Origin: Klebsiella phage KP13-16
Reading direction: 5' to 3' (one strand)
DNA: 64,000 nt
Sequence record: OP617741.1
Position numbers and translations under genes: made by a program. The notes below the pieces were generated by a model that had not been told where the DNA came from, searched no databases, and saw nothing but the letters and a program-made list of their open reading frames with translations. Below, piece after piece: positions 2,431-17,165 of the stretch (its first letter is position 1; the number at the start of each line of letters is the position of its first letter).

Positions 2431-2438
2431 ATTTTCTC

Positions 2439-2657
2439 CTAGTTAACACGTTCATAAAGTTCCTCTCCAGGAAGAACAATATTTAAACCATAAACATCAA
2501 CTTGTCGCAATGCTTCTGATTCTTCATAAATGAAGGCGTATTTATTTTTATAAACCTTCATCATATAGTCTCGAATTTGATCCTCATTTTTGCCTTCAAA
2601 TTTCATAAGACTGTTTCTGAGATTATATTTTTGACCAAAGCTAACATAAAGATTCAT
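2439..2657 (-). CDS. hypothetical protein
   Basis: 72-aa ORF, operon context. Confidence 0.3.
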   Translation of the reverse strand: MNLYVSFGQKYNLRNSLMKFEGKNEDQIRDYMMKVYKNKYAFIYEESEALRQVDVYGLNIVLPGEELYERVN

Positions 2658-2659
2658 CT

Positions 2660-2845
2660 CTACTCCTTAATGACTTCAAATAAAACATGGTGATAAATTA
2701 GATGATTAAACTCAACAATATCATCTGGATCACGAAGACTCCTAAGAAATGGTTCTTCTTGTTCATCCCATTCAACTTCTATTTTATCTCCATCTTGAAA
2801 AGAAGCAAGAAGAGAATCTTTAATTATAATATAAAGTTTCTTCAT
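2660..2845 (-). CDS. hypothetical protein
   Basis: 61-aa acidic ORF, operon context. Confidence 0.25.
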   Translation of the reverse strand: MKKLYIIIKDSLLASFQDGDKIEVEWDEQEEPFLRSLRDPDDIVEFNHLIYHHVLFEVIKE

Positions 2846-2849
2846 TGTC

Positions 2850-3626
2850 CTAATTTCCTAATTTTTGCAATGGAGATTTACCTTCAAGATGGTCTTCTAC
2901 AATCTTGATAAAGTTTTTGTTATTAAAAGCTTCAACAGCACCACAACGGAATTGTAACACTCCGTGAATATCGTATTGCTCTTGTTCAAGATAGTTGATT
3001 CCGGGATTTACAACCAAGACCTTAGTTCCACGCTTAACTGCTGGGAACAACTCCCAGTTGAAGTTGATTACAGTATTTGAACATCCAACAACAATAACCA
3101 TATCTTCTGAAGTCAGCCCATCAAGGGTAGTATATAACTCATGATAAGCCGGAGCATTCTCCCCAAAGAATATTACGTTTGGTTTGCACCATCCATAATC
3201 ATCAGGATCAATTTGTGCATATCCAACGTTGATTATCTTCTTAGGAGACCCAGCCTCTGTCTCAATGACAAGTTCTTTGAGATACCCATGAATGTACAGA
3301 GTATCTTCTTTCGGTACACCTGCACGTTCCAACAAATCATCGACGTTAGTCGTCATGTTGATAACTTGTCCAGGATAACGTTTGTACCACTCAGCAACAC
3401 GAAGGTGTGCAGCATTTGGATGTACTGTTGGCAACTCTGCACGACGCTTATTATAAAACATGTGTGTTTTATGATAAAAGTTTCCACGGAAAGAATGGAT
3501 GTTGCAAACCTCCTCAAGATCATATTCATCCCATAAAGCTTTCCCAGATTCAGTATCTGTGCGGAATGTACGTACACCACTCTCCGCAGAGAAACCAGCC
3601 CCACTTATTACTATAAGACGTCTCAT
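2850..3626 (-). CDS. Sir2-family NAD-dependent deacylase/NADase-like protein
   Basis: 258 aa; GAGxS motif ISGAGFSAESGVRTFR, TTNVDDL (TQNID-like), HG and CxxC-like segments typical of sirtuin/CobB fold. Confidence 0.65.
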   Translation of the reverse strand: MRRLIVISGAGFSAESGVRTFRTDTESGKALWDEYDLEEVCNIHSFRGNFYHKTHMFYNKRRAELPTVHPNAAHLRVAEWYKRYPGQVINMTTNVDDLLERAGVPKEDTLYIHGYLKELVIETEAGSPKKIINVGYAQIDPDDYGWCKPNVIFFGENAPAYHELYTTLDGLTSEDMVIVVGCSNTVINFNWELFPAVKRGTKVLVVNPGINYLEQEQYDIHGVLQFRCGAVEAFNNKNFIKIVEDHLEGKSPLQKLGN

Positions 3627-3838
3627 TATTTCTCCTTATCAAAATTTTTATCAAAGCACTTTATAGTTAATCTCGTTATTAATTTATCGGAGACATAACA
3701 CCACAATTGTTTTCCATCATTAGTTTTGACTTCGAAGATCTCATCAGTTTTAGGTGTAAACAAAAATACATCCTTCTTATTCTCATTTGCAAAAACTGAA
3801 TAAGATAAGAATAATAGTACTATTAAAATATGTTTCAT
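3626..3838 (-). CDS. hypothetical secreted protein
   Basis: 70 aa; N-terminal hydrophobic signal-like segment MKHILIVLLFLSYSVFA. Confidence 0.3.
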   Translation of the reverse strand: MKHILIVLLFLSYSVFANENKKDVFLFTPKTDEIFEVKTNDGKQLWCYVSDKLITRLTIKCFDKNFDKEK

Positions 3839-3846
3839 AATTTATC

Positions 3847-4272
3847 CTACTGTAATTTTAATGAGTTTCTAAGACGTCTCTCTTGAGTATCACGGATTTC
3901 CTGTGGGACGTTATGAATAGAATCATTTCCATGTCTATTTTCAACAACCAAACTAACAACTTTATACCCATACTCTTCAGCTAAGTCAATATATGGTTTA
4001 AGTTCTTTTTCAGTAGTTGTAGTGTTAGATACAATTATTTTTACCCAATTACCTAAACCATGAAAATTATCTTCCATGTACATTTTTACTTGATCTTGGC
4101 ACCATTTATGCGCTGCTTGGATATTTTCAGGTTTCCAATCGTAAACACCCTCTTCCGTGTAGTGAAATTTATCTGCTTCACAGATAGGCCACAAACCTTC
4201 TGCAAGCATGTCTGCCACTGTAGACTTACCAGCACCAGACACACCGCGAAGGATAATCAAAGTCTTTTCCAT
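3847..4272 (-). CDS. polynucleotide 5'-hydroxyl kinase (T4 Pnk kinase-domain-like, no fused phosphatase)
   Basis: 141 aa; P-loop LRGVSGAGKSTVA aligns with T4 Pnk ILTIGCPGSGKSTWA; IIVSNTT and LAEEYGYKV align with T4 Pnk ISDTN and FAKEYGWKV. Confidence 0.55.
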   Translation of the reverse strand: MEKTLIILRGVSGAGKSTVADMLAEGLWPICEADKFHYTEEGVYDWKPENIQAAHKWCQDQVKMYMEDNFHGLGNWVKIIVSNTTTTEKELKPYIDLAEEYGYKVVSLVVENRHGNDSIHNVPQEIRDTQERRLRNSLKLQ

Positions 4273-4281
4273 CTCCTCTCC

Positions 4282-4632
4282 TCAGTAATTGTTTCTTAAG
4301 ATCGTGATACGATACTTCAAGAAGCTCTCTTTTGCAAGCATGAACTTTTGTGCCGCAGAAGGGTTAGACGTGTGGACATAGAGTTTAGCATCATCCACAG
4401 GAAGTTTCCCATACACAAGCTTCTCTTCCAAGGCTAACAGGCAGTCATAGCCCTCCATTTCTGAATCTTCGCCGAGGTCATTATCGAAATGCCACTCTGT
4501 GACATAACGATAGAACTTTGACCGATTATCAAGAAAATCCATAAACTTCTGAGAGGTCTTGAACCACAATGCGCCAGGATAACCGTAGTCTTTTGGATCT
4601 CTTAAGTCATCAAGCCATACAACCATTAACAT
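4282..4632 (-). CDS. hypothetical protein
   Basis: 116-aa ORF between kinase and RNA ligase genes. Confidence 0.3.
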   Translation of the reverse strand: MLMVVWLDDLRDPKDYGYPGALWFKTSQKFMDFLDNRSKFYRYVTEWHFDNDLGEDSEMEGYDCLLALEEKLVYGKLPVDDAKLYVHTSNPSAAQKFMLAKESFLKYRITILRNNY

Positions 4633-4832
4633 TTCTCCTCAAAATAAGCCTCGATCCATTTACGACGATATTGAGCATCTTTAACTGCCCATTCCTCTTT
4701 TTCAAAGGCCCAGCGTAAATAATCAATAAGGTTATAATATTCTTCATCAATACGCTTTTTAGCTTCTTTTGGATTGTCCCAGATCATATCCCACTTGTTC
4801 TGTCCACCTCGCATCAGGAACTTCTTCGCCAA
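4626..4832 (-). CDS. hypothetical protein
   Basis: 68-aa ORF immediately 3' of the RNA ligase ORF; track start codon is TTG, an ATG lies a few codons in. Confidence 0.25.
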   Translation of the reverse strand: MAKKFLMRGGQNKWDMIWDNPKEAKKRIDEEYYNLIDYLRWAFEKEEWAVKDAQYRRKWIEAYFEEKC

Positions 4833-4841
4833 GTAATGTGG

Positions 4842-5546
4842 TTACTTGATTTTAAGAAGCAGTTCGCTGTTTTCGTCATCTGTTCCGACATTACGGATAA
4901 CAAAACCTTCGTGAGTTACAGCCTTGGAATACTTGATCACATCACTGAAGAACATATTATGCCATTCAGGACGCTTTGCTCCGATCACTTCAGCTATGCG
5001 ATCAAGACGATATTCTTCAAGCATTGTCCCATTTAAGGCTAAGTCTCGCATACCAATCAAATATGCACCCTCTTCCTCCTCAACAATGTGAGGATCGCTA
5101 CTGTCACAAATTTCAAAGATGAAAGTATAGTCCTCTGGAAATGCAACAAGATCTAATTTCATCTTTTCAAGATATTTCCGTGCCAGATCAGAGAACTCAG
5201 AATCCAAGGTTCCTGTCGTTGATACAAGAAGTTTTTCACCACGTACCGCAGCAGTTGCCATAAATCCGTTGACTTTACGAATGCAAACAACCTGCTGATC
5301 GAGTGGTAAGTCTGTTCCATTCTCGAAACGGTTAAAAATCTTCGTAAAAGGCCAGATAATAACGTTGTCTTCTGCATCAACAACCATACCACGACACTCA
5401 AGCAGACGTGAGTCTGTATGCCACAGGTTGTCCCAGAACACATTGTTCTTATATTTGAGCACAGAAAGACCAGCGAACGGGCCTTCGGTGTAAGTCTTTT
5501 TAGTCACCAGATTTTTAGCAACTAAGTCGTCTACGTTGAACTTCAT
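4842..5546 (-). CDS. RNA ligase, Rnl1 family (T4 RnlA-like adenylyltransferase core)
   Basis: 234 aa; LLECRGMVVD and WPFTKIFNRFEN match T4 Rnl1 ALECRGIMFE and RPMEKFFNLNEN; motif I KVNG (KxDG/NG), motif III-like FIFEI, motif IV EGFVIR, motif V LLKIK at the C-terminus. Confidence 0.6.
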   Translation of the reverse strand: MKFNVDDLVAKNLVTKKTYTEGPFAGLSVLKYKNNVFWDNLWHTDSRLLECRGMVVDAEDNVIIWPFTKIFNRFENGTDLPLDQQVVCIRKVNGFMATAAVRGEKLLVSTTGTLDSEFSDLARKYLEKMKLDLVAFPEDYTFIFEICDSSDPHIVEEEEGAYLIGMRDLALNGTMLEEYRLDRIAEVIGAKRPEWHNMFFSDVIKYSKAVTHEGFVIRNVGTDDENSELLLKIK

Positions 5547-5742
5547 TTTCTCTCCTTCGAGTAAGATTCTTCAAAAGTTTAAGCACTTCTTTTTGTGCTT
5601 CCTTCATATCATTGAAGTCATCATATTCGCTCATATCTAAATTGTCAACATAATCTTCAAGTTCACTCAGAAGAAAAATTACATTCTCAATAAGATCAGT
5701 ATCTTTATGCATCATCTGAACCAAAATTTTTGTGGTGGTCAA
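5515..5742 (-). CDS. hypothetical acidic protein
   Basis: 75-aa ORF, overlaps neighbours by a few codons. Confidence 0.25.
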   Translation of the reverse strand: MTTTKILVQMMHKDTDLIENVIFLLSELEDYVDNLDMSEYDDFNDMKEAQKEVLKLLKNLTRRRENEVQRRRLSC

Positions 5743-6271
5743 CCACTTTTATCTCACGACGCTCCATCTTAGCAATGATTTCATCAAAATGCAAGATCTT
5801 CCCTTGTGCATCCCAACCAACATCTAGCATTTTACCATATATTTCATCAGGAAAACTTCCATGGCTATGTCCATGAAGCATAATTGCACCTCTTCCTTGT
5901 TTATTCCATGAGGCAATAGGGTAATGACAAAGGACAAAGAATTTCTTACCATATTTAACTTCATCATAGTACTTAACTTCACCGTACTTCTCAAGAACTT
6001 CTCTATGCTTTGAATAATCATGGTTTCCAACGATGAATGTAATGTCACCGTTTAAACGAGAAGCAATGAGATCCGTTTCTTCTGGTGTCCCAAAGCAGAA
6101 ATCTCCAAGATGATACATTTTTGTACCAGGTGTTTTTGCTTTTTCATTCCAAGCTAAAATAAGACCTTCTGTCATTTCATGAAGTCTTTCCCAAGAACGA
6201 TATTTAGGACAAAACTCTGAAACTCTCTTATGAAGAAAATGCAGGTCTGAAGTTACATACATATTAAACAC
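5705..6271 (-). CDS. calcineurin-like metallophosphoesterase
   Basis: 188 aa; binuclear MPE motifs SDLHF, LGDFCFG, GNHD, GHSHG in canonical order. Confidence 0.6.
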   Translation of the reverse strand: MFNMYVTSDLHFLHKRVSEFCPKYRSWERLHEMTEGLILAWNEKAKTPGTKMYHLGDFCFGTPEETDLIASRLNGDITFIVGNHDYSKHREVLEKYGEVKYYDEVKYGKKFFVLCHYPIASWNKQGRGAIMLHGHSHGSFPDEIYGKMLDVGWDAQGKILHFDEIIAKMERREIKVVDHHKNFGSDDA

Positions 6272-6755
6272 CTCTTTTATATTGATCTAAAATTTCTTTT
6301 GATTCTTTCAGTTTCATTTCACAATACCTCATTGTCTTAATTGCATTCTGTTGCTCTTGTGATGTGAATTGATCAAAGCTTTTAACATAAGCATACACAC
6401 TAACTTCTTTAAAATCTTCACTAAAATCATCATATTGGTCTACGAATTTTTCAGTATCTTCAATAACAATATGTGAAAAATTCCAATCTTCTGATGTATT
6501 TTCTTTAATAAATTGATTAACATCTTTCCAAAATTTTAACATAAAATCTGGGTTAGTGTAATCATAAGCACGAATTGAGTAGGATTTTACTAAAATTTCA
6601 TCTTCTTTTACATTAAATAACTCTTGAACATGAGATAAAGCTTCACTAAAGCTTTTACGGCATTGCACATAATTAGTGGCATAGAAATCTAACCAGTCAT
6701 CTTCAAGTTTATGACTTAAATGATTAATACCAAGTTCTTCTAAAATGTCTCTCAT
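6264..6755 (-). CDS. hypothetical protein
   Basis: 163-aa ORF, operon context. Confidence 0.3.
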   Translation of the reverse strand: MRDILEELGINHLSHKLEDDWLDFYATNYVQCRKSFSEALSHVQELFNVKEDEILVKSYSIRAYDYTNPDFMLKFWKDVNQFIKENTSEDWNFSHIVIEDTEKFVDQYDDFSEDFKEVSVYAYVKSFDQFTSQEQQNAIKTMRYCEMKLKESKEILDQYKRGV

Positions 6756-7108
6756 TAATATAAATCCTCACTAAATAGTACATCTATAGGATATCCTTTG
6801 GTACGTACAGTGTTAATTTGTCCAGCATGAGTAGCAATAATTAAAGCTTCCTCACGAGTAAAATATTCACCCCATTGGTCAATAAACCCTTGATTATCAC
6901 CACTAACATGGTCTGTTACCAGCTTATCACAAATTAAATCCAAGACATTTGCCATATCAGGAGAATAATGACGAGTACCAGGAATAATGATAGTTCCACC
7001 AGTTTTCAATTCAAATCTATTCGCAGCACATACAATTCGTCGTTGAATTTTACGACCATCTAACCAATCTGCAACTTTAAAGCAAATCTCTGGCAATTCA
7101 AAATTCAT
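6755..7108 (-). CDS. hypothetical protein
   Basis: 117-aa ORF, start overlaps upstream stop. Confidence 0.3.
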
Positions 7109-7413
7109 TTCTTACCTCTTTTAGTTTTCTTTTCATACGTTCCAAACACACGACCTTCTATTGCACATAGCGGTACTTTGGTCAAGCCACGTCTTTTAGC
7201 TTCTGGCAGATCTCTTTCCCAAATTCCCAACCAATACTTGAGTTCTTCAATCCTTTTTCTTTGTTCCGAATCAGGTTGTTGGTATTCAAGAAGATCCTCT
7301 AACTCAGCATAGCAAGCTAGAAGCTTTTCTTCAAGAGCAGATAGATCAGTTTCAAACACAAAAGCAGAAGTATCAAATTTTTCTTTCTTTACTGTTTTTC
7401 CAGTGGTTCCCAT
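7105..7413 (-). CDS. hypothetical protein
   Basis: 102-aa ORF. Confidence 0.3.
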
Positions 7414-7673
7414 TTGAAATCTTTACCTCCGAATTTCATGAAGTTGACATCATTTGTATCTAAGTGTGCTTTGTCTATAGAACCACCTGCAATGCTAACA
7501 TATTCAATAATGGTGTCTAACTGTTTTTCTTGCTCTTCTGGAAGTTTACTTTTCAAATCAACCAAAATCTCTTTTACTTCCACAAGTTCCTTAAAGATAT
7601 CTTGTAGGATGCATGAAACTATCTCTAGATCCATTTGGTCAAATGGCAGACCATCTTCATACTCTTTCATCAC
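7389..7673 (-). CDS. hypothetical protein
   Basis: 94-aa ORF. Confidence 0.3.
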   Translation of the reverse strand: MMKEYEDGLPFDQMDLEIVSCILQDIFKELVEVKEILVDLKSKLPEEQEKQLDTIIEYVSIAGGSIDKAHLDTNDVNFMKFGGKDFKWEPLEKQ

Positions 7674-7987
7674 TCCTCCAATACTTTACAAACAACCATT
7701 GGATAATCTTTACCAGTATGATTAGCCATTTGCCAGCAAATCAATTTCATCTGGATAGCATTTACATAATCCTTAACATTTTTATCAAATTTACAATAGA
7801 TATAAGATACCGAATGATCATTGAAAAGAAATTCTCTACTTGTTGAGATGTCTAAAATTTCTATATCTTCTTTTGACATCTCTGAATATCGGTCTATGGC
7901 AGAGAAAATTACATCCAATTGATCACCAATAAGTTTTTTGTATTCTTCATTGTAAGCCAATTCTGCCAAGATTTGTTCTTTGTTCAT
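7670..7987 (-). CDS. hypothetical protein
   Basis: 105-aa ORF. Confidence 0.3.
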   Translation of the reverse strand: MNKEQILAELAYNEEYKKLIGDQLDVIFSAIDRYSEMSKEDIEILDISTSREFLFNDHSVSYIYCKFDKNVKDYVNAIQMKLICWQMANHTGKDYPMVVCKVLEE

Positions 7988-8016
7988 TTGATCTCCTACA
8001 ACTCAAAAAGGATCTA

Positions 8017-8715
8017 TTAAGCAATTTTACGCCACTGATATACACCATACACTGAGTTTAAGAGATAAGCAATCCACATTACTAACACGACTGCTCCTCC
8101 ACCCTCATGATGCATTGTAGCCTGAATCCAAAGAACAACGGCAACAATGTTAACAATTACCCAAATATACCATTGTTCAGAGTAACGTAGTACCATTAAC
8201 ACTGTAGCTAGCACAGAGAGAATTGCTGTCGCAGAATCTAAGCCAGGAGAATATCCTTTCAACAAGGAAACACCATAAGCATAGGCTGCAATAACGATTA
8301 GTATGCCAACAGTAACAATGAGACGTTGTTGAGTTGTTAACCATTTCTTCACAACATCAGCCTTCTGTCCATCTTCAGAAAGCTTTAACTTTTGAGACCA
8401 AAGAATACCGCCAATTAACTGCAAAGGTGTAAACAATAGAGTATACATAATTGTTTCACCATACATTTTGTATGTGAATGAGATATATGCATACAATGCT
8501 GTTGCAACAAATCCCCAGTAGTAACTTGAGAGTTTACCTTTAGCAACAAGGATCGCACCAATGATCCCTGTAACAGAGGAGACAAATTCAACGAGAGTTG
8601 CACCCATAATTACAGATGTTGCTGCAATAGTTACAGAGCAAACAAAAAGCCAAAGATATTCTAACCTAGACCAACCATAGAAGTCAGTCAAAGTTGTTTT
8701 CAGATAAATATTCAT
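8017..8715 (-). CDS. pnuC: nicotinamide riboside transporter PnuC family
   Basis: 232 aa, about 7 predicted TM helices, Trp/Tyr-rich PnuC-like sequence; sits beside NadR-like gene. Confidence 0.65.
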   Translation of the reverse strand: MNIYLKTTLTDFYGWSRLEYLWLFVCSVTIAATSVIMGATLVEFVSSVTGIIGAILVAKGKLSSYYWGFVATALYAYISFTYKMYGETIMYTLLFTPLQLIGGILWSQKLKLSEDGQKADVVKKWLTTQQRLIVTVGILIVIAAYAYGVSLLKGYSPGLDSATAILSVLATVLMVLRYSEQWYIWVIVNIVAVVLWIQATMHHEGGGAVVLVMWIAYLLNSVYGVYQWRKIA

Positions 8716-9020
8716 TTTAACCCCTTGTGCGAAAGTTCTTGCATTAACTGTTCACCAGTCATTGTCTTACCAGAGACAACATCTTCTTGAGAGATTTCCA
8801 ATAACTTAATCAAAGCTTCAGTTTCTTTTTCCTCATCAACCAATTTGAATCCCCAAACAGAGCCATTCATTGGAATGGGAATTTTGTCAAGATCACCATT
8901 GTTATCTCGTAGTAACATACCGCCATTAGAAAAACCTTCAATAATGTAAATATCGTTAAGAGTATAAATATTATGTGTACTAGTACTACGGGTACATTTG
9001 ACACGATCACCTACTTTCAT
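8712..9020 (-). CDS. hypothetical protein
   Basis: 102-aa ORF between pnuC and nadR-like genes. Confidence 0.3.
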   Translation of the reverse strand: MKVGDRVKCTRSTSTHNIYTLNDIYIIEGFSNGGMLLRDNNGDLDKIPIPMNGSVWGFKLVDEEKETEALIKLLEISQEDVVSGKTMTGEQLMQELSHKGLK

Positions 9021-9034
9021 TCTACCTCCTCTTT

Positions 9035-10081
9035 TTAACTTCCTATAAGTTTTTTAATTTCTTTCATTGCTTCATTGAAGCGGTTTTCGTAAGTCCCACC
9101 AATTTGGATAACTGGACACTTCTCATACACTTTATAAACGTTGTATACAAAATTGTCAAGAACCTTTTGTGATTTTTCTCTGTCATCTTGTGTTGATTTT
9201 TTACGTAAAGGGTCATCTACCCAAGGGATGTCATTACGTAAGTACAAGACAAGATCATATTTCTCAGCAAAACAGATCTCAGATAGCAGTGGTGAATAGT
9301 GTTGCAAGTTATTAAATGTATTCATAGAAAAATCTGTCACAACTGCATTTGTATCACTCAACAAAATCTTGTTTGCATATGGCAAAAGTTCCTTTTCTTT
9401 CATCTTATGCTTCATAGCAACGTATACATAGTCTTCAGGCTTCATGTAAGCCTCTGTGAGTCCATATTCTTGCTCACAGATAGTTCGACCTACCTCCTCT
9501 ACAAAAACCGTCTGTAGAGCTTTAGAGAGCTTTTTAACTAGTGTTGATTTGCCAGTAGACTCTACACCAATGATACAAACTTTTTTCACATAGTGTTTTC
9601 TCATGGCTGGTGCAATAAAATCCCAGTACTTATAGGGATTATTTCTGATCATTGTTGCACTGATAGTCACTTCATCACGGTTAGCATCTACAACGATGTG
9701 CTCAGAGTCTGGAAAATTATCTTTAAGATACTTATCATAACTAGGTTCGCTGGTAAATACTTTATCGAAGTGTAGAGTTCTAGTCTTTTTCTTCAGCATA
9801 TTAGTAAACATTACTTCACCTTCTGGATAACCAGGAACAGCACTTTCATCAATGACATTAACGATGATGTTATTAAAATCTTTAAAGGTTTCAATCAAAG
9901 CTAAATGTCTGTTGGCTTTGGTTAAAGGTTCACTAACACTATGTTCTAATGTATCATTGAATTTTTGATCATAACTTAAGACCACATGCAATGTGTCAAC
10001 CAAAGCAGAAGCTTTGATCACCATGTTGATGTGTCCTAAGTGTAAAGGTGCAAACTTCCCAAAAATCAAACCAATAGTCAT
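9035..10081 (-). CDS. bifunctional NMN adenylyltransferase / ribosylnicotinamide kinase (NadR-like, no HTH domain)
   Basis: 348 aa; N-terminal nucleotidyltransferase motif GKFAPLHLGH (HxGH), C-terminal P-loop IGVESTGKSTL as in NadR kinase domain. Confidence 0.7.
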   Translation of the reverse strand: MTIGLIFGKFAPLHLGHINMVIKASALVDTLHVVLSYDQKFNDTLEHSVSEPLTKANRHLALIETFKDFNNIIVNVIDESAVPGYPEGEVMFTNMLKKKTRTLHFDKVFTSEPSYDKYLKDNFPDSEHIVVDANRDEVTISATMIRNNPYKYWDFIAPAMRKHYVKKVCIIGVESTGKSTLVKKLSKALQTVFVEEVGRTICEQEYGLTEAYMKPEDYVYVAMKHKMKEKELLPYANKILLSDTNAVVTDFSMNTFNNLQHYSPLLSEICFAEKYDLVLYLRNDIPWVDDPLRKKSTQDDREKSQKVLDNFVYNVYKVYEKCPVIQIGGTYENRFNEAMKEIKKLIGS

Positions 10082-10377
10082 TAATGGATCTCCACAATAT
10101 TTTTATCTAAATCTGAAGCTGTAACTTTATCAAGACTCTTCAGTGTGATCAAGCCTCTTTTGTCATAAAGTTTCATCACACTGGTGTACTGTTTGAAGAC
10201 ATCTTCAAAACTTCTTTCTGTTTCCGTTACCACTACAACAGGTTGACCATGGATTACAGAGAGTCTTACACTTCTTACCTGATCTAAGAACAAGACTTCT
10301 TCAGTGGTAGGTTTCTCTTTACGCATACGCTTGTTCGGTTTATCTACCACTGACATGATTGTAGTAAAATCTGACAT
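10081..10377 (-). CDS. hypothetical protein
   Basis: 98-aa ORF, last gene of the minus-strand block. Confidence 0.3.
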   Translation of the reverse strand: MSDFTTIMSVVDKPNKRMRKEKPTTEEVLFLDQVRSVRLSVIHGQPVVVVTETERSFEDVFKQYTSVMKLYDKRGLITLKSLDKVTASDLDKNIVEIH

Positions 10378-10652
10378 AAGTACCTCATAATTATTAATTT
10401 ATGTATAGATACTAACTATCTATTAGACTAAAGTCAAGATTATTTTTAACTTTACTATGTGATCAAAAGATGATAAAACATAAATTTAGATCACAAAACA
10501 ACTGTATAAATTTACATGTGATCTAAATTATATTAATTATTTATAATTAATAATATATAATCATAAGTTAGTCTATAAACTAGATCATAAGTTAGTATTG
10601 TGTGCCTTTTTGGGGACAATTAGGAATGTCTCTTTTTAGGGACAATTAGGTG

Positions 10653-10681
10653 TTGACACTGAAACTGTGAAGTGGTAAAAC
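10653..10681 (+). promoter_or_regulatory. sigma70-like promoter for the regulator-prs-nadV operon
   Basis: TTGACA (10653-10658), 17-nt spacer, TAAAAC; preceded by two 19-nt direct repeats CTTTTT(G/A)GGGACAATTAGG. Confidence 0.4.
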
Positions 10682-10714
10682 TTATAGAGTGAGATACAGG
10701 CAGGAGCAACTTGG

Positions 10715-11098
10715 ATGAAAATAAGGTTAGATGACAATGAGATTACAATAAAAGAGAACTCTTTTGTCTCTATCCCTGTCTACTGGGTTTTCGATAAGAG
10801 GTTGTCTGGTGGTGATTTACAAAGATTGATAAGATTATGGTGGAGATATGACTACTTTTGTCACTTGGCTAAGAAGAAAGACAAGCTTGCAGATTTGACT
10901 AAAGTGTTCTATCCTTCCCAACAAACATTGTGTGAATTACTTGGATTTGGGGAAAAATCAAGAACAAAAGTAACAGAGTTCTTGAAAAGGATGGAAGAGT
11001 ATGGTTATATACAAAGAATCAAGAGTGGTTTTGTAGACCAATCAGGTCATGCAAAACCAAGACATTACATAGTAGTTAATAGAGGAGATTTAAAATGA
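10715..11098 (+). CDS. putative winged-helix transcriptional regulator
   Basis: 127 aa; segment SQQTLCELLGFGEKSRTKVTEFLKRMEEYGYIQR looks like a MarR/wHTH recognition unit; first gene after a repeat-rich divergent region. Confidence 0.35.
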   Translation: MKIRLDDNEITIKENSFVSIPVYWVFDKRLSGGDLQRLIRLWWRYDYFCHLAKKKDKLADLTKVFYPSQQTLCELLGFGEKSRTKVTEFLKRMEEYGYIQRIKSGFVDQSGHAKPRHYIVVNRGDLK

Positions 11099-11895
11099 GT
11101 CTTGAACTTAGACTGAACAAACTTATTGTTCCTGTAGACCACTTTACGTTCAAAGGTGGTGAGGAGCAAGTGAAGATTGACTTGAACCATGTTCCGAAAG
11201 GTAGTATTGGTTTTGTTGATATTACTGCTAAAATCAAAAACTCGACTGACGTCATGGCATTAGCTATGTTAGTAGATGCATGTTCTCGCCTTGAGAATCT
11301 GGATGTTACTACAGAGTTTATTTTAAATTTACCCTACATCCCCTATGCTCGACAGGATCGTGTAATGCAGCCTGGTGAAGCTTTATCCATCAAAGTTTTC
11401 GCTAACATCATTAACTCACTCGGGTTTGATAAGGTAATTGTCGATGATCCGCATAGCGATGTATCCGCAGCACTTCTTAACAACGTTAAAATTCGTGGTC
11501 AGGATACTCTTGTTGCGGAATTCCATGAAGGTCTCGCTGGCAAAGATGTTGTTATCGTTGCCCCTGATGCTGGAGCACGTAAAAAAGCACAGAAAGTTTC
11601 CGACCGCCTACGCCTCCCTCTCGTGGAAGCTGGGAAAGTACGTGACCTGAAGACAAATGAAATTACCGGTACTGCTGTTTTCGGTGATGTTGAAGGCCGT
11701 GAGTGTGTTATTGTTGATGATATCTGTGATGGCGGTCGAACATTCATTGCCCTAGCACAAGTACTGAAGGCAAAAGGTGCAAAACGAGTTATTATTTACG
11801 TAACGCATGGCATTTTTTCCTACGGTAAAGAAGTTATCTACGAAGGTGGTGTGGATGAAATCTACGCTTATCATGATTGGACGGAGAACTTTTAA
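11095..11895 (+). CDS. ribose-phosphate pyrophosphokinase family enzyme (Prs or ADPR-pyrophosphate synthetase type)
   Basis: 266 aa; PYARQDR motif and PRPP-binding loop VIVDDICDGGRT; shorter than canonical Prs. Confidence 0.65.
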   Translation: MSLELRLNKLIVPVDHFTFKGGEEQVKIDLNHVPKGSIGFVDITAKIKNSTDVMALAMLVDACSRLENLDVTTEFILNLPYIPYARQDRVMQPGEALSIKVFANIINSLGFDKVIVDDPHSDVSAALLNNVKIRGQDTLVAEFHEGLAGKDVVIVAPDAGARKKAQKVSDRLRLPLVEAGKVRDLKTNEITGTAVFGDVEGRECVIVDDICDGGRTFIALAQVLKAKGAKRVIIYVTHGIFSYGKEVIYEGGVDEIYAYHDWTENF

Positions 11896-12106
11896 TGCAA
11901 ACATTTTTTGAGATCTATGCGGCATTGTTATTTAGCTTCCTGTTTTGCCTTTGGAGTACAAAAGGATACTTTAACTGGTTTATTAAAATTGCTCTTTTTA
12001 TCGGTGTGGTGTCTGGAATCATCATCAATTATCAAAATTTAGCTTGACATAAAAATGAACGGGTGTAAAATACACCCATCAAAACAAACAAAGGAGATAC
12101 AAAACA

Positions 12107-13791
12107 TGCTGCACAAAGAAAGCCCAATTGCTTTTGCTGATTTTTACAAACCTTCACATATCTCTATGTACGATAAACGTTCTGAGATTGTTCAGGATAA
12201 CATGACACCACGAAACGCAAAGCACTTCATTCACTTCGCTGATAACGACCAGCGTGTTATGATGGCAGGTCTTCAGGGATTCATTAAGTGGTTCCTTATC
12301 GACATGTTTAACGAAAACTTCTTCAAGAAAAGTAAAGAAGAAGCTATTGAACAGTACAAAGAAATTTGTGATCTGAGTATTGGTCCTAACATGGTTGAAA
12401 CTTGGGGATTTGAAAAGCTGCATGACCTTGGTTATCTGCCACTGGAAATCCGTTCGATTCCTGAAGGTACTCTGTCTCCGGTACAGGTTCCGCTGTTCAC
12501 CATTCAGAACACGCATCCTGATTTTTACTGGTTACCTAACTTCCTGGAAAGTGTGATCTCCGCAGAAACTTGGAAAACTATTACGACTGCAACTACGTTC
12601 TGGCAGTATCGCAAGCTGTCTGAAAAATGGGCTGCTGAGACTTGCGATAACAACTTGCATGTTCCTTTCCAGAACCACTGTTTCGCATATCGTGGTGAAT
12701 CTGGGACGCACGACGCAGCACAGAGTGAGTTTGGTCAACTGATCAACTCAATGGGTACTGATACTATCCCAGCAATTCTGTATGCAAATCGTTATTACAA
12801 CATGAAAGGCAAGTTCGTTGCTGGTTCTATTCCTGCATCTGAACACTCTGTTGCAACAACGAACATCGGTTTCATCGTTGGTCGTTTACAAGGCGAAAAC
12901 CCTGACCTGACTCTTGACGAAGCACGTTTCTTGGCTGAGGTTGAGTTCCTGCGTCGTTACATTACGGAAATTTTCCCTAAAGGTTTTGTTTCCTACGTGG
13001 CAGACAGTTATGACTTCTGGGCGATTATCACCAAAGCAGCAGCGATCCTGGAACAGGACATCATGGCCCGTGATGGTCGTGTAGTGTTCCGTCCTGACTC
13101 AGGCATCCCTGAGCATATCATTGCTGGCTATCGTAGCCTCGGTGAGTTTGATGACTGGTCTGATGCACACTCAGCACTACAGGAAGATTCAAATTCAGAA
13201 GTTGCCAAGATTGAAGGTAAATACTACCGGATTCTTGTTGACGATGAGAATAATGCCTACTTCGACTTCCAACCTTCAGGTCTTGAAGAACATGAGGTTA
13301 AAGGTGCTGTACAGTGTCTGTGGGAAATCTTTGGTGGTGAAGTTAACTCCAAAGGTTACAAAGTTCTTGATAGTCATGTTGGTCTGATTTACGGTGACTC
13401 CATCACTGTTGCTCGTGCAAAAGACATCTTTGAACGTTTGAAAGAAAAAGGTTTTGCATCCAGCAACATTGTTTACGGCGTCGGTTCTTTCACCACGCAG
13501 TACACAACTCGTGATTCACTGAGTATGGCTGTCAAAGCAACTGGTCTGGTTATTGATGGTCAGCAGATTATGATTGTCAAAGAACCGAAGACAGACCTTG
13601 GCAAGAAATCTGCGAAAGGTTTTCTGAAAGTTGTTCGCAACATGTTCGGTCAGTTAGAACTGATTGACAATTGCCAGCTTGAAGAGGTACAGTCTGACGA
13701 TAACGAGTTGCGTCGTGTGTTCTACAACGGCAAGCTAATTGTCGATGAAGACCTGACAACGATTCGTGAGCGAGCAGCTTCACAACTTTAA
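12107..13791 (+). CDS. nadV: nicotinamide phosphoribosyltransferase (NAMPT/NadV family)
   Basis: 561 aa from ATG 12107 (RBS AGGAG 12093-12097; track ORF starts earlier at 12055); length and sequence typical of NAMPT-family enzymes. Confidence 0.75.
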
Positions 13792-13796
13792 AAGTT

Positions 13797-13826
13797 AAGC
13801 CCCTTAATCGGGGCTTTTTATTTTGT
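13797..13826 (+). terminator. rho-independent terminator after nadV
   Basis: AAGCCCC-TTAATC-GGGGCTT hairpin followed by TTTTTATTTT. Confidence 0.55.
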
Positions 13827-13902
13827 TAATTTGACATAAAATCTTACTCTGGTGTATAGTAATATTACCAAACTATTAACTATAACCTTTTTGTGAGATT
13901 TT

Positions 13903-14145
13903 ATGGATAAACCCAATAACAATAATAAACCAACTTATAATTTTTATTTTAGATGTAAAGCCTGTGATGCCCCTCTTAACCACAATTCCTACAATGTCAA
14001 AAATGGTATAAATGAATCACCATACTGCTCCAGGTGTGCTTCATACTCTTTTGATAACTCAAACTCAGATCGAGAATATGAACATCAATACTTAAGCGAA
14101 CTAGATTTTTCTGGAAATGGAATAAAATCTGAAGATTTTGATTAA
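13903..14145 (+). CDS. hypothetical zinc-ribbon protein
   Basis: 80 aa; CKACDAP...CSRCASYS cysteine pairs. Confidence 0.3.
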   Translation: MDKPNNNNKPTYNFYFRCKACDAPLNHNSYNVKNGINESPYCSRCASYSFDNSNSDREYEHQYLSELDFSGNGIKSEDFD

Positions 14146-14227
14146 AATTTTAAAAACATACTTGACTTCAGTTTATGACTTTTGCTATAGTTCATTTCGA
14201 ACGAGTTAATAAACAAAGGAGTTAATT

Positions 14228-15667
14228 ATGTCTAAGCTGTTTGATGCATCCCGTAGTAAGTCCCAACTGACACTTAATGGTGCAGTTACTCATGAATCTT
14301 CACTGAATAAAAATGTGGATTTGTTTTTCCAGATTGGTACTTTACGTAAGAATCCAAATGTTGTTTCTGATGATCTTTTCTGGCAAGCTCTTAGTGAAGA
14401 TGCGGAAACTGCTGTACGTATTCTTCTATACTCCCGAGATATTCGCGGAGGTATGGGTGAAAGAAATATTTTTAGAAAAACATTTAAAAACATTTGTGAC
14501 CAGAATCCAAAACTCGCAACACGTTTGTTAGTTAAGATTCCAGAACTTGGTCGTTGGGACGATGTTCTTGAAGCTATTGGAACACCAGTTGAAAAAGAAG
14601 CCTTGCAGTTTATCGCTGACTGTTTAACAGATAAGACTAACGCAGGACTATGCGCAAAATGGATGCCACGTATGCGTGGAAATAACACAGTTAAAAATAA
14701 AAATAATGCAAAGGTACTTGCTAAATTTATGAAACTGAGTTATCAGGAATATAATAAACTCTTGTCATCTTTGTCTAATACTGTGGAACAGAGTCTTTCT
14801 CGCAAAGAATACGGTGCTATTGATTATAGCAAGCTGCCATCGCTTGCAGCAGCACGTTATCAGGCACTATTTAATCGTGTGGACAGTGAACGTTATGCAC
14901 AGTATCGTGAAAGCCTGATTAAAGAAGATGGACAAGCTAAGATCAATGCAGGTGCTGTTTATCCGTATGATATTGTAAAATCTTGTATGCACGGAGATAA
15001 GTCAGTAGCAAATGCCCAATGGAAAGCATTGCCAGATTATACTGAAGGTACAAGTGAAAACATTATCTGTTTATCTGATGTTTCTGGTTCTATGACATTC
15101 CCAGAGGCAAAAGTTTCTGGTGATATTTATGCTCTTCATGTAGGGATTGCTTTATCTCTTTACATTGCTGAACGTAATAAAGGTATCTTCAAAGATCAGA
15201 TGATGGTATATTCAACAAATCCTTATTTTATCGATGTAGGAAGTTCCTTGACTCTTGCACAGAAACTTGCTAAGGTACAAGAACATGTTGAGTATGGATC
15301 AACTGATATTATGAAAGCTTTTGCAAGAATTCTTGAGTTAGGTAAGAAACACAACTTGACACAAGAGGATATGCCTAGTAAAGTTATCGTATTCTCTGAT
15401 ATGGAATTTAACCAAGCCATTTCAGGTATGACAAACTTTGAGTCTATTGCTCTTATGTATAGTCAATCTGGATATACCTTGCCTCAGCTTGTTTTCTGGA
15501 ATCTTGCAGCCCATCAGAGAGGCAACGTGCCAGTTCAAGTAGGTCAGAAAGGTACAGCATTGGTTTCAGGATTTTCACCAGCGATTATGAAAGGACTCTT
15601 GACAGGTGAGTTAGAACCTGTTAAAGTTATGCAGAAGTTAGTTAACGTACCACGTTATGATTTCTAA
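14228..15667 (+). CDS. vWA (MIDAS) domain protein with N-terminal alpha-helical domain; candidate Ro60/Rsr-like (TROVE/DUF2828-type) RNA-binding protein
   Basis: 479 aa; MIDAS DxSGS motif CLSDVSGSMTF plus downstream GSTD and FSDME elements; long helical N-domain; sits immediately upstream of the Y-RNA-like elements, mirroring bacterial rsr-yrl operons. TROVE assignment not verifiable by eye. Confidence 0.4.
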   Translation: MSKLFDASRSKSQLTLNGAVTHESSLNKNVDLFFQIGTLRKNPNVVSDDLFWQALSEDAETAVRILLYSRDIRGGMGERNIFRKTFKNICDQNPKLATRLLVKIPELGRWDDVLEAIGTPVEKEALQFIADCLTDKTNAGLCAKWMPRMRGNNTVKNKNNAKVLAKFMKLSYQEYNKLLSSLSNTVEQSLSRKEYGAIDYSKLPSLAAARYQALFNRVDSERYAQYRESLIKEDGQAKINAGAVYPYDIVKSCMHGDKSVANAQWKALPDYTEGTSENIICLSDVSGSMTFPEAKVSGDIYALHVGIALSLYIAERNKGIFKDQMMVYSTNPYFIDVGSSLTLAQKLAKVQEHVEYGSTDIMKAFARILELGKKHNLTQEDMPSKVIVFSDMEFNQAISGMTNFESIALMYSQSGYTLPQLVFWNLAAHQRGNVPVQVGQKGTALVSGFSPAIMKGLLTGELEPVKVMQKLVNVPRYDF

Positions 15668-15755: not shown

Positions 15756-15780
15756 CTTGAAGATTTACAGCAAATCTAAA
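15756..15780 (+). repeat. stem+TTTACAGCAAAT motif element E1 (no tRNA module)
   Basis: GAAG-ATTTACAGCAAATCT; hairpin AGATTT-ACAGC-AAATCT. Confidence 0.4.
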
Positions 15781-15824
15781 ACAACATTACACTTGAAATG
15801 TAGCGAAAAGAATATCTTCTGAAT

Positions 15825-15864
15825 CTTTTATAAATAAATCTTGGTAAGAAGAAATACAGCAATT
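15825..15864 (+). repeat. stem+motif element E2 (no tRNA module)
   Basis: TCTTCT (15825-15830) pairs with AGAAGA (15847-15852), followed by AATACAGCAATT. Confidence 0.4.
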
Positions 15865-15904
15865 TTAAAATTTCATGCATAGAAAATAAATTCTTCTGCC
15901 GACA

Positions 15905-16047
15905 ATTTTATCAAAGAAGCTTTACAGCAAATAAAATCTAATGGGAACTTTGGGTCGTAGGTTCAAATCCTGCTTCCCCGAACAAGTAACGGGGAATAGC
16001 TCAGTCTGGTAGAGCAAAAGTATAGAAAAATAGCTTCTGATAATTAA
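15905..16047 (+). ncRNA. Y-RNA-like (YrlA-like) permuted tRNA mimic 1
   Basis: Order: helix strand AGAAGCT (15915-15921), motif TTTACAGCAAAT, ACTTT-GGGTC-GTAGG-TTCAAAT-CCTGC-TTCCCCG-A, 8-nt loop, CGGGGAA-TA-GCTC-AGTCTGGTA-GAGC-A-AAAGT, A-rich, helix strand AGCTTCT (16032-16038). Acceptor strands 7/7 complementary, anticodon-stem strands 5/5. Extended bulged helix TTATC/GATAA. Confidence 0.5.
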
Positions 16048-16059
16048 ATTAGCCGACGT

Positions 16060-16205
16060 AGTTATACAGCAAAATATACTGGAAAATAGTAAAACTCCCG
16101 ACATATGTCTTCGCTGGTTCGAATCCAGTCTTCCTCCACCAAACATTCTATGGAGGAATAGGGAAGTGGTTAAACCCAGGAGTCCAAAAACAAAACTACT
16201 GGCAA
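16060..16205 (+). ncRNA. Y-RNA-like permuted tRNA mimic 2 (type-II tRNA-like, long variable arm)
   Basis: GCC..GTAGTT (16062-16073) + ATACAGCAAAAT, then ACTCC, variable arm CGACATATGTCTTCG, T-arm CTGG-TTCGAAT-CCAG, TTCCTCC-A-CCA, 9-nt linker, GGAGGAA-TA-GGG..CCC-A-GGAGT, A-rich, then AACTAC-T-GGC (16194-16203) pairing with the leader. Confidence 0.5.
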
Positions 16206-16208
16206 ACA

Positions 16209-16336
16209 AATTCGAGAAGGTTTTCAGCAACTAATATCTTTCACTGGTAATGAAGAGTTGTCGGTTCGAGTCCGGCTCAGGTCTTTAGACTTGATAGTTT
16301 AATCGGGAAAACGTTATGATAAATACCTTCTGAATA
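16209..16336 (+). ncRNA. Y-RNA-like permuted tRNA mimic 3
   Basis: Leader AGAAGGT (16215-16221) + TTTTCAGCAACT, T-arm GTCGG-TTCGAGT-CCGGC, TCAGGTC-T, 3-nt loop TTA, GACTTGA-TA-GTTT...AAAC, then ATAAATA + ACCTTCT (16325-16331) complementary to leader; anticodon-like stem not resolved. Confidence 0.4.
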
Positions 16337-16343
16337 GTATTAA

Positions 16344-16419
16344 GCTCCAATAGCACAACAGGCAGTGCAGTTCCCTTGTAAGGATCAGGTTGGGAGTTCG
16401 ATTCTCTCTTGGAGCACCA
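16344..16419 (+). tRNA. tRNA-Thr(TGT)
   Basis: 76 nt; acceptor GCTCCAA/TTGGAGC, D-arm GCAC/GTGC, anticodon loop CTTGTAA, T-loop TTCGATT, encoded CCA. Confidence 0.7.
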
Positions 16420-16616
16420 AATTTGCTCTCCTGTAGAGACCTTAGGGCTTGCAGGATTTACGTGTGGCGTATCAGAGCAAACTAAATGAGAAGGCCGGGG
16501 ACGCCCTGCTAAAGCCGTCCATCTGAGTAGGTCTAAGATTAAGTATGTGAGGAAATTTATTGCTTGCATTAAAAACTCCGCTTAAAGACATTCACTACAA
16601 AGGGGCGCAAAAATTT

Positions 16617-16692
16617 GGGGTCGCATGTACTAAGGTAGCGAGGGAGGTTTGCACCTTTCCTGTAAAGGGTTCAATTCCCTTCGACTCCACCA
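16617..16692 (+). tRNA. tRNA-Ala(TGC)
   Basis: 76 nt; acceptor GGGGTCG/CGACTCC (one G-T), anticodon loop TTTGCAC, T-arm AAGGG-TTCAATT-CCCTT, CCA. Confidence 0.55.
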
Positions 16693-16907
16693 AATTTGTT
16701 AGACTGCTAACAAGCTCTGGACTACCGCAGGCGAGATGGGTTCACGGGATTAAAATACCGTCTAGGGAGCAACAATTTATTGAAAAGAATTATGCAAGAT
16801 GATGTATCTCGAAACAAACATCGGAAGTGCTATCCGGTAATGCTGCCAATGTATGTTTGTGGGGTGTAGGTATTCAGAGTCACGATCTCCATCTTGCACC
16901 TAATAAT

Positions 16908-16984
16908 TGGGGATTCGCCAAGTTGGTTAAGGCACAGGACTTTGATTCCTGTATACATGTGTTCGAATCACATATCCCCTGCCA
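16908..16984 (+). tRNA. tRNA-Gln(TTG)
   Basis: 77 nt; anticodon arm CAGGA-CTTTGAT-TCCTG, T-arm ATGTG-TTCGAAT-CACAT, disc G + CCA; 1-72 T-T mismatch. Confidence 0.55.
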
Positions 16985-16993
16985 AATTATTAT

Positions 16994-17082
16994 GTGGGAA
17001 TAGCACCGTAGAGGTAGCGGCGTTGACTGTAAATCAACTTTCCGAAAGGAATCGGGTGGTTCGACTCCATCTTCCCACACCA
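16994..17082 (+). tRNA. tRNA-Tyr(GTA)
   Basis: 89 nt type II; acceptor GTGGGAA/TTCCCAC, anticodon arm GTTGA-CTGTAAA-TCAAC, long variable arm TTTCCGAAAGGAATC, CCA. Confidence 0.7.
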
Positions 17083-17088
17083 AATTAA

Positions 17089-17165
17089 GCGTCTGGGGCT
17101 GGCTAGGTAATGGTACTCCCCTGTCACGGGAGAGAATGCGGGATCGTAACCCGTCGGACGCGCCA
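17089..17165 (+). tRNA. tRNA-Asp(GTC)
   Basis: 77 nt; acceptor GCGTCTG/CGGACGC, anticodon arm CTCCC-CTGTCAC-GGGAG, T-arm GCGGG-ATCGTAA-CCCGT (non-canonical T-loop), CCA. Confidence 0.5.

Follow-up and report, generated by a model that had tools for sequence, protein, structure and literature searches.

Two phage-encoded routes for rebuilding NAD+, the NAD+ reconstitution pathways NARP1 and NARP3, are the closest described counterparts of a locus at positions 8017-13791 of a 64,000-nucleotide segment of Klebsiella phage KP13-16 (OP617741.1), which is referred to as the window. In NARP1 (Osterman et al. 2024), the Prs-like enzyme Adps turns ADP-ribose (ADPR) together with ATP into ADPR-pyrophosphate (ADPR-PP), and Namat, a Nampt-like enzyme, joins ADPR-PP and nicotinamide to NAD+. 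Examples include genes 79-80 of phage Bas63, SpbetaL1 and Fado, and deletion of the two Bas63 genes sensitised this phage to SIR2-HerA (Osterman et al. 2024). Structures have been reported for SpbetaL1 Namat (9w5w; NAR 2026, gkaf1492) and ICP1 Adps (NAR 2026, gkag901). In NARP3, described for phage TrudiRoth (Yan et al., Sci Adv 2026), the PnuC-like protein Bas30_87 imports nicotinamide riboside (NR), and Bas30_86, a NadR-like enzyme without the helix-turn-helix (HTH) domain, converts NR to NAD+. When Bas30_86 and Bas30_87 are co-expressed, phages are rescued from both Sir2-HerA and DSR1 (Yan et al., Sci Adv 2026).

The KP13-16 locus very probably comprises two independent phage NAD+ reconstitution pathways that are divergently transcribed, with a NARP1-type arm on the plus strand and a NARP3-type arm on the minus strand. 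Direct observation covered the gene content, the homologies and signature residues, the layout of the operons and the synteny with other phages. A sequence-only reading of this DNA had placed a PnuC for NR import and a NadR-like enzyme without HTH on the minus strand, opposite a winged-helix-like regulator, a short Prs-like enzyme and a NAMPT. All of these genes were found where it had put them, on the strands it had given, and the start of the Nampt-like gene was the single correction. The minus arm could in addition be assigned to a named and tested pathway (NARP3). The open reading frames (ORFs) of the two arms that are needed first are as follows.

8017-8715, minus strand: PnuC-type NR transporter (NARP3, Bas30_87-like); PF04973 6.9e-38, phrog_1880 1.7e-68, TIGR01528
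8712-9020, minus strand: 102-aa ORF between nadR-like and pnuC; weak DUF7244 match, below cutoff
9035-10081, minus strand: NadR-like NR kinase/nicotinamide mononucleotide (NMN) adenylyltransferase without HTH (NARP3, Bas30_86-like); phrog_3462 3.1e-116
10081-10377, minus strand: 98-aa ORF, the first of the minus arm, whose stop overlaps the nadR-like start; phrog_4868 6.5e-18
11095-11895, plus strand: Adps-type homologue of phosphoribosyl pyrophosphate (PRPP) synthetase (PRPS), 266 aa (NARP1); three PRPS Pfam domains
11895-12047, plus strand: hydrophobic ORF of 50 aa in the gap from adps to namat; start ATG and adps stop overlap (TAATG)
12106-13791, plus strand: Namat-type Nampt homologue, 561 aa (NARP1); PF04095, phrog_448 2.9e-195

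Families were assigned by Pfam, NCBIfam/TIGRFAM and PHROGs, and defence models by PADLOC. Since the family E-values range from 1e-21 to 1e-195, chance matches are excluded. The window is a phage genome segment organised in strand blocks, with closely packed small ORFs and 19 tRNA genes, and the host of the locus is a Klebsiella myophage whose closest DNA record is Klebsiella phage vB_KpM_FBKp34 (95.7% identity across 81% of the window's first 25 kb). The longest Nampt-like ORF begins at 12055. The coding sequence most likely starts at 12106 instead, because an AAGGAG Shine-Dalgarno motif precedes this position and both the FBKp34 annotation and an independent gene call give a protein of 561 aa.

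The 266-aa Prs-like protein is 40% identical to Bas63 Adps and 37% identical to ICP1 Adps, and 29-33% identical to PRPS. Its PP loop reads D208-D-I-C-D-G-G-R-T-F217, the same as in Bas63; the ICP1 Adps loop is DDICDGAASF, and the PRPS of E. coli, Burkholderia and Mycobacterium have DDM(I/V)DT(G/A)GT(L/I). This loop forms the donor site and has been described as remodelled and conserved among Adps homologues (ICP1 Adps, NAR 2026, gkag901). The same work names Lys185 as the catalytic residue and Arg87, His121, Asp161, Asp212, Asp213 and Asp216 as acceptor residues, and the window protein keeps every one of them (R86, H120, D158, K181, D208, D209 and D212). ICP1 Phe18 corresponds to F19 in the window protein, and ICP1 Phe92 to a Met, likewise in Bas63. 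The residues named for ICP1 are also common to PRPS, so that alone they indicate catalytic competence and not specificity.

A phylogeny of the Prs-like protein, which the sequence-only reading had proposed as a check, was consistent with the loop. In neighbour-joining trees that contained only three PRPS outgroups, two of them partial sequences, with support given as directly counted split frequencies, the Adps-like sequences were split from cellular PRPS in 200/200 bootstrap replicates, and the window protein fell within the common ancestor of the verified Bas63 and ICP1 Adps in 167/200; firm grouping with housekeeping Prs/NadV was not seen. The namat gene starts 211 bp downstream of adps on the same strand, and a Namat gene in the immediate vicinity has been reported for 97% of the Adps clade (Osterman et al. 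2024). Moreover, the FBKp34 and KNP2 orthologues are listed in the supplementary Adps and "Adps-associated" Nampt-homologue tables of Osterman et al. 2024. When ICP1 Adps was used as a query against PDB, no match was obtained at E<=1e-15; as the PDB set searched holds no Adps structure, membership in this family rests on alignment, motifs and trees. These data identify the Prs-like protein as Adps-type, with a predicted conversion of ADPR and ATP to ADPR-PP.

The Nampt-like protein is 42% identical to Bas63 Namat. Its best PDB match is SpbetaL1 Namat (9w5w/9w5x, 1.4e-123), followed by Xcc Nampt (1.3e-52) and human Nampt (~1e-47), and with this query the solved Namat outscores every true Nampt by ~70 orders of magnitude. 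The adenine-clamp motif (SCH) of the window protein is GSFTTQYTTRD, in which the adenine-stacking positions 3 and 7 are occupied by F and Y; the corresponding motifs are GSFTYQYNTRD in SpbetaL1, GSYTYQYMTRD in Bas63 and GGALLQKVDRD in Xcc Nampt. The selectivity-clamp loop (SCL) is TPRNAKHF. According to the SCL rule, the third residue is Arg, Lys or Tyr, and either this residue or the fourth is the stacking one. The residues that follow TPR are N-A-K-H-F in the window versus S-D-K-W-F in Bas63; the third residue in the window is Lys, and the aligned loop appears compatible with the rule. The catalytic core is also kept (SEHS at 245 and RPDSG at 329, 561-aa numbering). By these sequence features the protein is Namat-type, a predicted nicotinamide ADP-ribose transferase. 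Another solved "nicotinamide phosphoribosyltransferase" (PDB 9ke8/9keo) matches the window Namat strongly (5e-106); its clamp-helix region is GAQTYQRNTRD, without the Namat aromatic at position 3.

The sequence-only reading had suggested that the Prs-like protein could be an ADPR-pyrophosphate synthetase, and that its adjacency to the NAMPT-like protein is the arrangement of phage NAD+ reconstitution pathways. Both suggestions held: the first through the PP loop, clade position, identity to Bas63 and the Osterman tables, and the second because the NAMPT-like protein is Namat-type by its PDB scores and adenine-clamp motif and the arrangement is that of NARP1 (Osterman et al. 2024).

The main rival to this assignment is classical PRPP-dependent salvage, in which a Prs would supply PRPP, the Nampt-like enzyme would form NMN, and the NMN adenylyltransferase (NMNAT) domain of the NadR-like protein would complete NAD+, as a NARP2-like boost for phage metabolism. 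Generic models and database names do call both proteins Prs and NAPRTase/Nampt, but the verified Bas63 Adps and Namat bear the same names, so names do not discriminate; family labels (Pfam, NCBIfam, PHROGs) were accordingly dropped as a discriminator. The window Prs-like protein is, for an Adps, comparatively close to PRPS. Three signatures favour Adps/Namat over PRPP salvage, namely its PP loop, its place in the trees and the clamp motif of the Namat-type protein. Namat keeps PRPP-dependent NMN synthesis in vitro, with an activity about one half that of human Nampt, and an NMNAT-bearing enzyme is encoded ~1 kb from the Prs/Nampt-like arm; this residual Nampt activity leaves room for cross-talk with the NMNAT domain. 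However, Bas63 NARP1 is functional without host NMN-to-NAD enzymes, and in relatives the NadR-like gene lies ~50 kb off, which makes the Adps/Namat pair independent of it. Classical salvage is thus disfavoured, and we regard it as very unlikely.

In the minus arm, the PnuC protein scores 117.6 bits against TIGR01528 (cutoff 42.45) and is 37% identical to Bas30_87 and 65-73% identical to PnuC of rV5-like phages. Two of the three key NR-binding residues of Bas30_87, Q94 and N180, are kept (Q99 and N189 in the window). The NadR-like protein contains CTP_transf_like and AAA_28 domains (TIGR01526, 3e-70), and its sequence shows GxFxPxHxGH, ISAT and Walker A motifs. Of the 411 positions in NF005988, the model of full-length NadR, 65-407 are covered by the alignment, and the start at position 65 indicates that the N-terminal HTH is absent. 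The best PDB match is 9x6f, "nicotinamide-nucleotide adenylyltransferase" (2e-61), and identity to Bas30_86 is 38%. Among the 17 residues cited for Bas30_86 (site 1 and site 2), 15 are identical or conservatively replaced in the window protein. Those kept include all ten positions at which mutants of Bas30_86 lose function (K10, F11, S37, E80, P84, G89, F110, S112, E230 and D275).

The order of the minus arm, enzyme then transporter on one strand, is the same as in Bas30, and a 98-aa ORF heads the arm. This ORF (phrog_4868) is conserved in FBKp34 and is no general neighbour of NadR. The 102-aa ORF gave no PHROG match, and PADLOC matched none of the small ORFs; a homologue of the 102-aa ORF stands at the same position in one IMG/VR phage (L034), and the middle part of the window ORF is unlike the FBKp34 version. 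The idea that the 98-aa and 102-aa ORFs are conserved extra parts of NARP3 was rejected, as a homologue was found in only one other fetched locus. On its sequence features, the minus arm matches a NARP3-type module.

By analogy with homologues tested elsewhere, the plus arm would operate through Adps, which would move pyrophosphate from ATP to ADPR, and Namat, which would join the resulting ADPR-PP with nicotinamide, so that NAD+ would be rebuilt from the exact products of host NADase defences. In the minus arm, PnuC would bring in NR, and the HTH-less NadR-like enzyme would phosphorylate it to NMN and adenylate NMN to NAD+. Together the arms may keep up NAD+ under depletion by Sir2-HerA, DSR, Thoeris, SEFIR-type or similar systems. 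The defence aRES yields ADPR-1''-phosphate, which NARP1 cannot use; since the NR route is independent of usable ADPR, NARP3 should still work under aRES.

Several points weigh against two functional pathways. Identity of the window proteins to the tested enzymes is only 37-42%, and their activities are predicted. In the Namat-type protein, SCH position 5 is Thr and not an aromatic residue, and the SCL stacking position is His (then Phe), where Bas63 has Trp. The Prs-like protein scores 170 bits with TIGR01251 versus 138 for Bas63 Adps, and it matches solved PRPS at 5.6e-27, whereas ICP1 Adps matches none at 1e-15; by these scores it is one of the more PRPS-like members of the Adps clade. In the minus arm, the equivalent of Bas30_87 N45 is Gly50 in the window PnuC. 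In Bas30_87, NR binding was lost with the N45A substitution (Yan et al., Sci Adv 2026); the four residues listed as coordinating NR in N. mucosa PnuC do not include N45. Two cited positions of the NadR-like protein are changed (D115 to Ser and D164 to His), and the 102-aa ORF parts nadR-like from pnuC, while the Bas30 pair abuts. Finally, the published tests of NARP3 itself were all made outside its native phage (Yan et al., Sci Adv 2026).

The sequence-only reading had also pointed to a Sir2 gene in the same strand block as an additional NAD-consuming activity.

2850-3626, minus strand: CobB-like Sir2, context only; PF02146 1.2e-21, phrog_2162 8.8e-108

This gene is present and NAD+-dependent by family, and nothing ties it mechanistically to the locus. 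The protein has a single domain, its best PDB match is E. coli CobB, and the GAGxSAESG NAD-binding motif and the IHG catalytic His are kept; one Cys only is found in the region that holds the Zn-binding cysteines of CobB. No PADLOC defence-SIR2 match and no fused sensor or effector domain were detected in it. By these features, Sir2 is a CobB-like conserved neighbour and not a defence-type NADase such as ThsA, DSR or SIR2-HerA. It holds the same place in KNP2, a phage without the nadR-pnuC cassette at that site, and its link to the NAD+ locus is circumstantial. Sir2 was also observed to be a conserved core gene of this phage group.

One could nevertheless suppose that the module mainly feeds NAD+ consumers of the phage itself, such as Sir2, rather than countering depletion. 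This catalytically plausible sirtuin lies 4.4 kb away in the same strand block, and Sir2 and NARP1 are syntenic across Mydovirus-like phages. On the other hand, homologous NARP1 and NARP3 modules have been shown to be active against NADase defences, the DNA ligase of this phage is ATP-dependent and not NAD-dependent, and sirtuin turnover would hardly need two dedicated synthesis routes. In Bas63, ICP1 and Bas30, the inspected flanks of the pathways contain no annotated Sir2. Such a purpose is extremely improbable in our judgement.

The two arms are separated by an AT-rich divergent intergenic region of 337 bp (10378-10714) with promoter-like sites facing both ways. The features of this region and the remaining signals of the plus arm are listed below.

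10409-10437, minus strand: promoter-like site of the minus (NARP3) arm; TTGACT-17-TAGTAT
10560-10650, no strand: two pairs of direct repeats, ATCATAAGTTAGT twice and TTTTTRGGGACAATTAGG twice, candidate operators; motif counts, KNP2 layout
10653-10681, plus strand: promoter of the plus (NARP1) arm; TTGACA, 17 nt, TAAAAC, read from sequence
10715-11098, plus strand: 127-aa winged-helix protein, candidate DNA-binding regulator; phrog_8453 7.2e-47, HTH_36 9e-4
12044-12071, plus strand: promoter-like site upstream of namat; TTGACA-16-TAAAAT, 11/12
13797-13816, plus strand: strong intrinsic terminator closing the plus arm; 7-bp GC-rich stem, then T-run

Both divergent promoter-like sites are at positions homologous to promoters annotated by the FBKp34 depositors, and the plus-arm -35 element is conserved in KNP2. 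The paired repeats end 3 bp before this -35 element, and each motif occurs only here in the 64 kb. KNP2 keeps the repeat layout, and both copies of its second repeat bear the same altered core (CGGGAATAATTAG). Because the same core change is found in both KNP2 copies while the layout is kept, this is the pattern expected of protein-binding sites, and the repeats are candidate operators.

The AF2 model of the 127-aa protein (pLDDT 82) has a winged-helix topology. Foldseek matches to this model are all weak and of differing kinds (TFIIE-alpha/TFE winged helix, DnaD-N, RepA_N initiators and MarR; E>1e-3, TM 0.4-0.55). The phrog_8453 gene was found in 73 rV5-like phage records only, and in those checked it lies directly upstream of, or within ~1 kb of, the Adps gene. 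It is absent from the Bas63 and ICP1 loci, and for this reason, together with its confinement to the rV5-like records, the ORF was rejected as a general component of NARP1. That the protein is a winged-helix-like regulator had been proposed from the sequence alone; fold and operator-like repeats agree with this. The protein is thus a plausible candidate regulator, which may control the plus arm.

A different function for this segment would be replication, with the winged-helix protein as initiator, the repeat-rich region as origin, and the adjacency to NARP1 as mere synteny. Weak PHROG matches to replication initiation proteins and to a DnaD-like loader (~1e-4) and the DnaD-N and RepA_N plasmid initiators among the fold matches point this way, and one relative annotates the 127-aa gene as a replication initiation protein; yet all fold and profile matches are weak (E above 1e-3, TM 0.4-0.55), and MarR and TFE-type regulators match the protein equally well. 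The direct repeats could be called iteron-like, and the intergenic region is AT-rich and carries a perfect 13-nt inverted repeat; the paired repeats, however, abut the -35 element of the promoter of the plus arm itself, as operators typically do. The minimum of cumulative GC skew also falls at the intergenic region, but a skew switch is expected from the change of transcription direction alone. We consider a replication origin at this site unlikely. The inverted repeat (AATTTAGATCACA / TGTGATCTAAATT, 21 nt apart) was observed along with several TGATC-containing repeats, and the region 10378-10714, at which the cumulative GC-skew minimum of the window was located, could be regulatory or origin-like.

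Sequence variation was also noted in the gap between adps and namat, which is a hotspot (11895-12047 on the plus strand of the window, 15768-16361 in the comparison locus L002 and ~4706 in L044). The 50-aa hydrophobic ORF, for which the family search gave no match, is a 147-bp insertion relative to KNP2, which is without any insert there, and FBKp34 carries an HNH homing endonuclease at the same insertion point. The C-terminal half of FBKp34 Adps is divergent (DDIADGAFTF). Differing inserts and this divergent half suggest recombination around the gap.

The placement of the two arms was then compared with that in other phages. In the rV5-like phages KNP2, KPP-1, PVP-SE1, 4MG, Ro1, AV124 and VLCpiM5a, the NARP1 and NadR-like/PnuC pairs are ~50 kb apart. 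IMG/VR was queried with a four-sequence NadR-like alignment, as a single-protein query returned nothing. PnuC was nearby (within ~3 kb) in 30 of the 32 loci with a NadR-like gene other than the window, and Adps or Namat was found within 8 kb of the NadR-like gene in none of these 32. KNP2 shares the leftward block (phosphoesterase, RNA ligase, cREC, ATPase, Sir2 and DNA ligase), which is divergent from its HTH-Adps-Namat arm. At the divergent junction of the window stands a cassette of four genes (ORF98, nadR-like, ORF102 and pnuC), and among the phages compared, a nadR-pnuC cassette at this junction was seen only in the window's own lineage (FBKp34 and KP13-16). With its FBKp34 counterpart the NadR-like protein shares 98% identity, and with the second-best phage record 44.6%; values are 37-40% for NadRs of rV5-like phages and 44-47% for those of Eneladusvirus jumbo phages. 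Judged by these identities, the cassette is a mosaic, because its PnuC is 65-73% identical to rV5-like proteins but its NadR only 37-47% to any protein outside FBKp34.

A literature search of limited extent found no description of NARP1 and NARP3 in one locus, and the FBKp34 genome paper contains no discussion of NAD genes. The discussion of the NARP3 paper states that the three pathways occur "across diverse phages" (Yan et al., Sci Adv 2026). The genes are of known kinds and the NARP1 orthologues have already been catalogued; the back-to-back placement is a modest variation that is apparently undescribed. It might be functional: the cassette may have been relocated into NARP1's divergent promoter region, so that both routes would be switched on together, possibly via the winged-helix protein at the repeats. 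The arms could then form a three-route network, composed of ADPR recycling by Adps and Namat, NR salvage by PnuC and the NadR-like enzyme, and a NARP2-like bypass in which NMN from the residual PRPP-dependent activity of Namat would pass to the NadR-like NMNAT domain. Were this so, the phage would be robust to ADPR-spoiling defences such as aRES. We hold this proposal to be tentative and rather unlikely.

Several other genes in the window were also noted. On the minus strand, an RNA-repair-like run (3847-6271) consists of an AAA_33 kinase (3847-4272), a cREC_REC "cyclic-phosphate processing receiver" domain protein (4282-4632), a T4-type RNA ligase (4842-5546) and a calcineurin-like metallophosphoesterase (5705-6271). 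This run is conserved in Mydovirus KNP2 and might act as a tRNA/RNA repair module that counters anticodon nucleases of the host. The strand block of Sir2 also includes a further gene of nucleotide metabolism (193-852, minus strand), whose 219-aa product has a MazG/PRA-PH-type nucleotide pyrophosphohydrolase domain; it is adjoined by the ATP-dependent DNA ligase (854-2215). Downstream of the locus, a 479-aa DUF2828 + DUF7788 protein (14228-15667, plus strand) with its own promoter-like site lies just upstream of the tRNA arrays; it belongs to phrog_850 (labelled "RNA-binding protein"), and its vWA match is weak and sub-threshold. The 19 tRNA genes form two arrays on the plus strand (16344-18548 and 21941-23764), and between them is a 419-aa TnpB/IS605 OrfB-like ORF with a Cas12f1-like TNB domain (19531-20790, plus strand). 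A similar "transposase accessory protein" is found in the corresponding region of FBKp34.

The conjecture that these genes encode Adps and Namat is correct and already published for this phage lineage, since the FBKp34 and KNP2 orthologues are in the tables of Osterman et al. 2024. The biology itself is thus published, and the gain is incremental. The labels "ribose-phosphate pyrophosphokinase" and "nicotinamide phosphoribosyltransferase" are misleading in that they conceal a counter-defence pathway, and re-annotation is possible by simple signatures, namely the DDICDG..F loop and the GS-F/Y-x-x-x-Y-x-TRD helix. It appears that rV5-like phages of Klebsiella, Salmonella and Escherichia commonly bear two NAD+ reconstitution pathways, and that one lineage has joined them in a single divergent locus. 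For Klebsiella phage therapy, the prediction is that phages of this kind withstand NAD+-depleting defences in two independent ways, and the compact 5.8-kb module could be transferred to other phages by engineering.

Compared with described NARP1 systems, the window likewise has a Prs-like gene adjacent to a Nampt-like one on a single strand (identities to the Bas63 pair of 40% and 42%) and keeps the Adps PP-loop signature and catalytic residues as well as the Namat SCH clamp motif and catalytic core. It differs in the winged-helix gene of phrog_8453 that heads the operon, a feature of rV5-like phages only, in the 50-aa hydrophobic ORF and internal promoter-like site between adps and namat, and in the Thr at SCH position 5 and the His as SCL stacking residue. 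No Macro-domain Adpp phosphatase was found in the ORFs scanned within 193-15667, where several small ORFs were unscanned, the search beyond 15.7 kb being unsystematic; because the locus ORFs scanned contain no such gene, the window NARP1 is the basic and not the "extended" form. Like NARP2 (NadV and NatV of KVP40), the window combines an enzyme of the Nampt family with an NMN adenylyltransferase activity in a single phage, and a chain from PRPP through NMN to NAD+ is chemically conceivable. Unlike in NARP2, the Nampt homologue is Namat-type and the NMNAT is NadR-type with a kinase domain; this protein is 23% identical to the KVP40 gene annotated as nadR (tblastn) and has no Nudix domain by Pfam. 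Membership in NARP2, defined by a PRPP-dependent Nampt and an NMNAT/Nudix enzyme, was ruled out by the Namat-type homologue and the lack of a Nudix match.

As in NARP3, an HTH-less NadR (NMNAT and RNK domains) and a PnuC are encoded on one strand (38% and 37% identity), with most of the tested residues kept. The window differs from the TrudiRoth pair in the 102-aa ORF between the genes and the 98-aa ORF before them, in a PnuC without the N45 equivalent, and in the different nearest relatives of its PnuC and NadR (65-73% to rV5-like phages versus 37-47%). Its phage is an rV5-like myovirus, whereas TrudiRoth is a T5-like siphovirus, and its NARP3 arm stands directly back-to-back with NARP1. Gene content also resembles that of Mydovirus and other rV5-like phages, which carry a NARP1 pair as well as a NadR-like/PnuC pair, have the block of Sir2, RNA ligase and phosphoesterase divergent from HTH-adps-namat, and show the same repeat architecture upstream of the HTH gene. 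In those phages, however, the two pathways are ~50 kb apart and NadR and PnuC are ~2 kb from each other with small ORFs between them, whereas in KP13-16 both pathways meet at one divergent junction.

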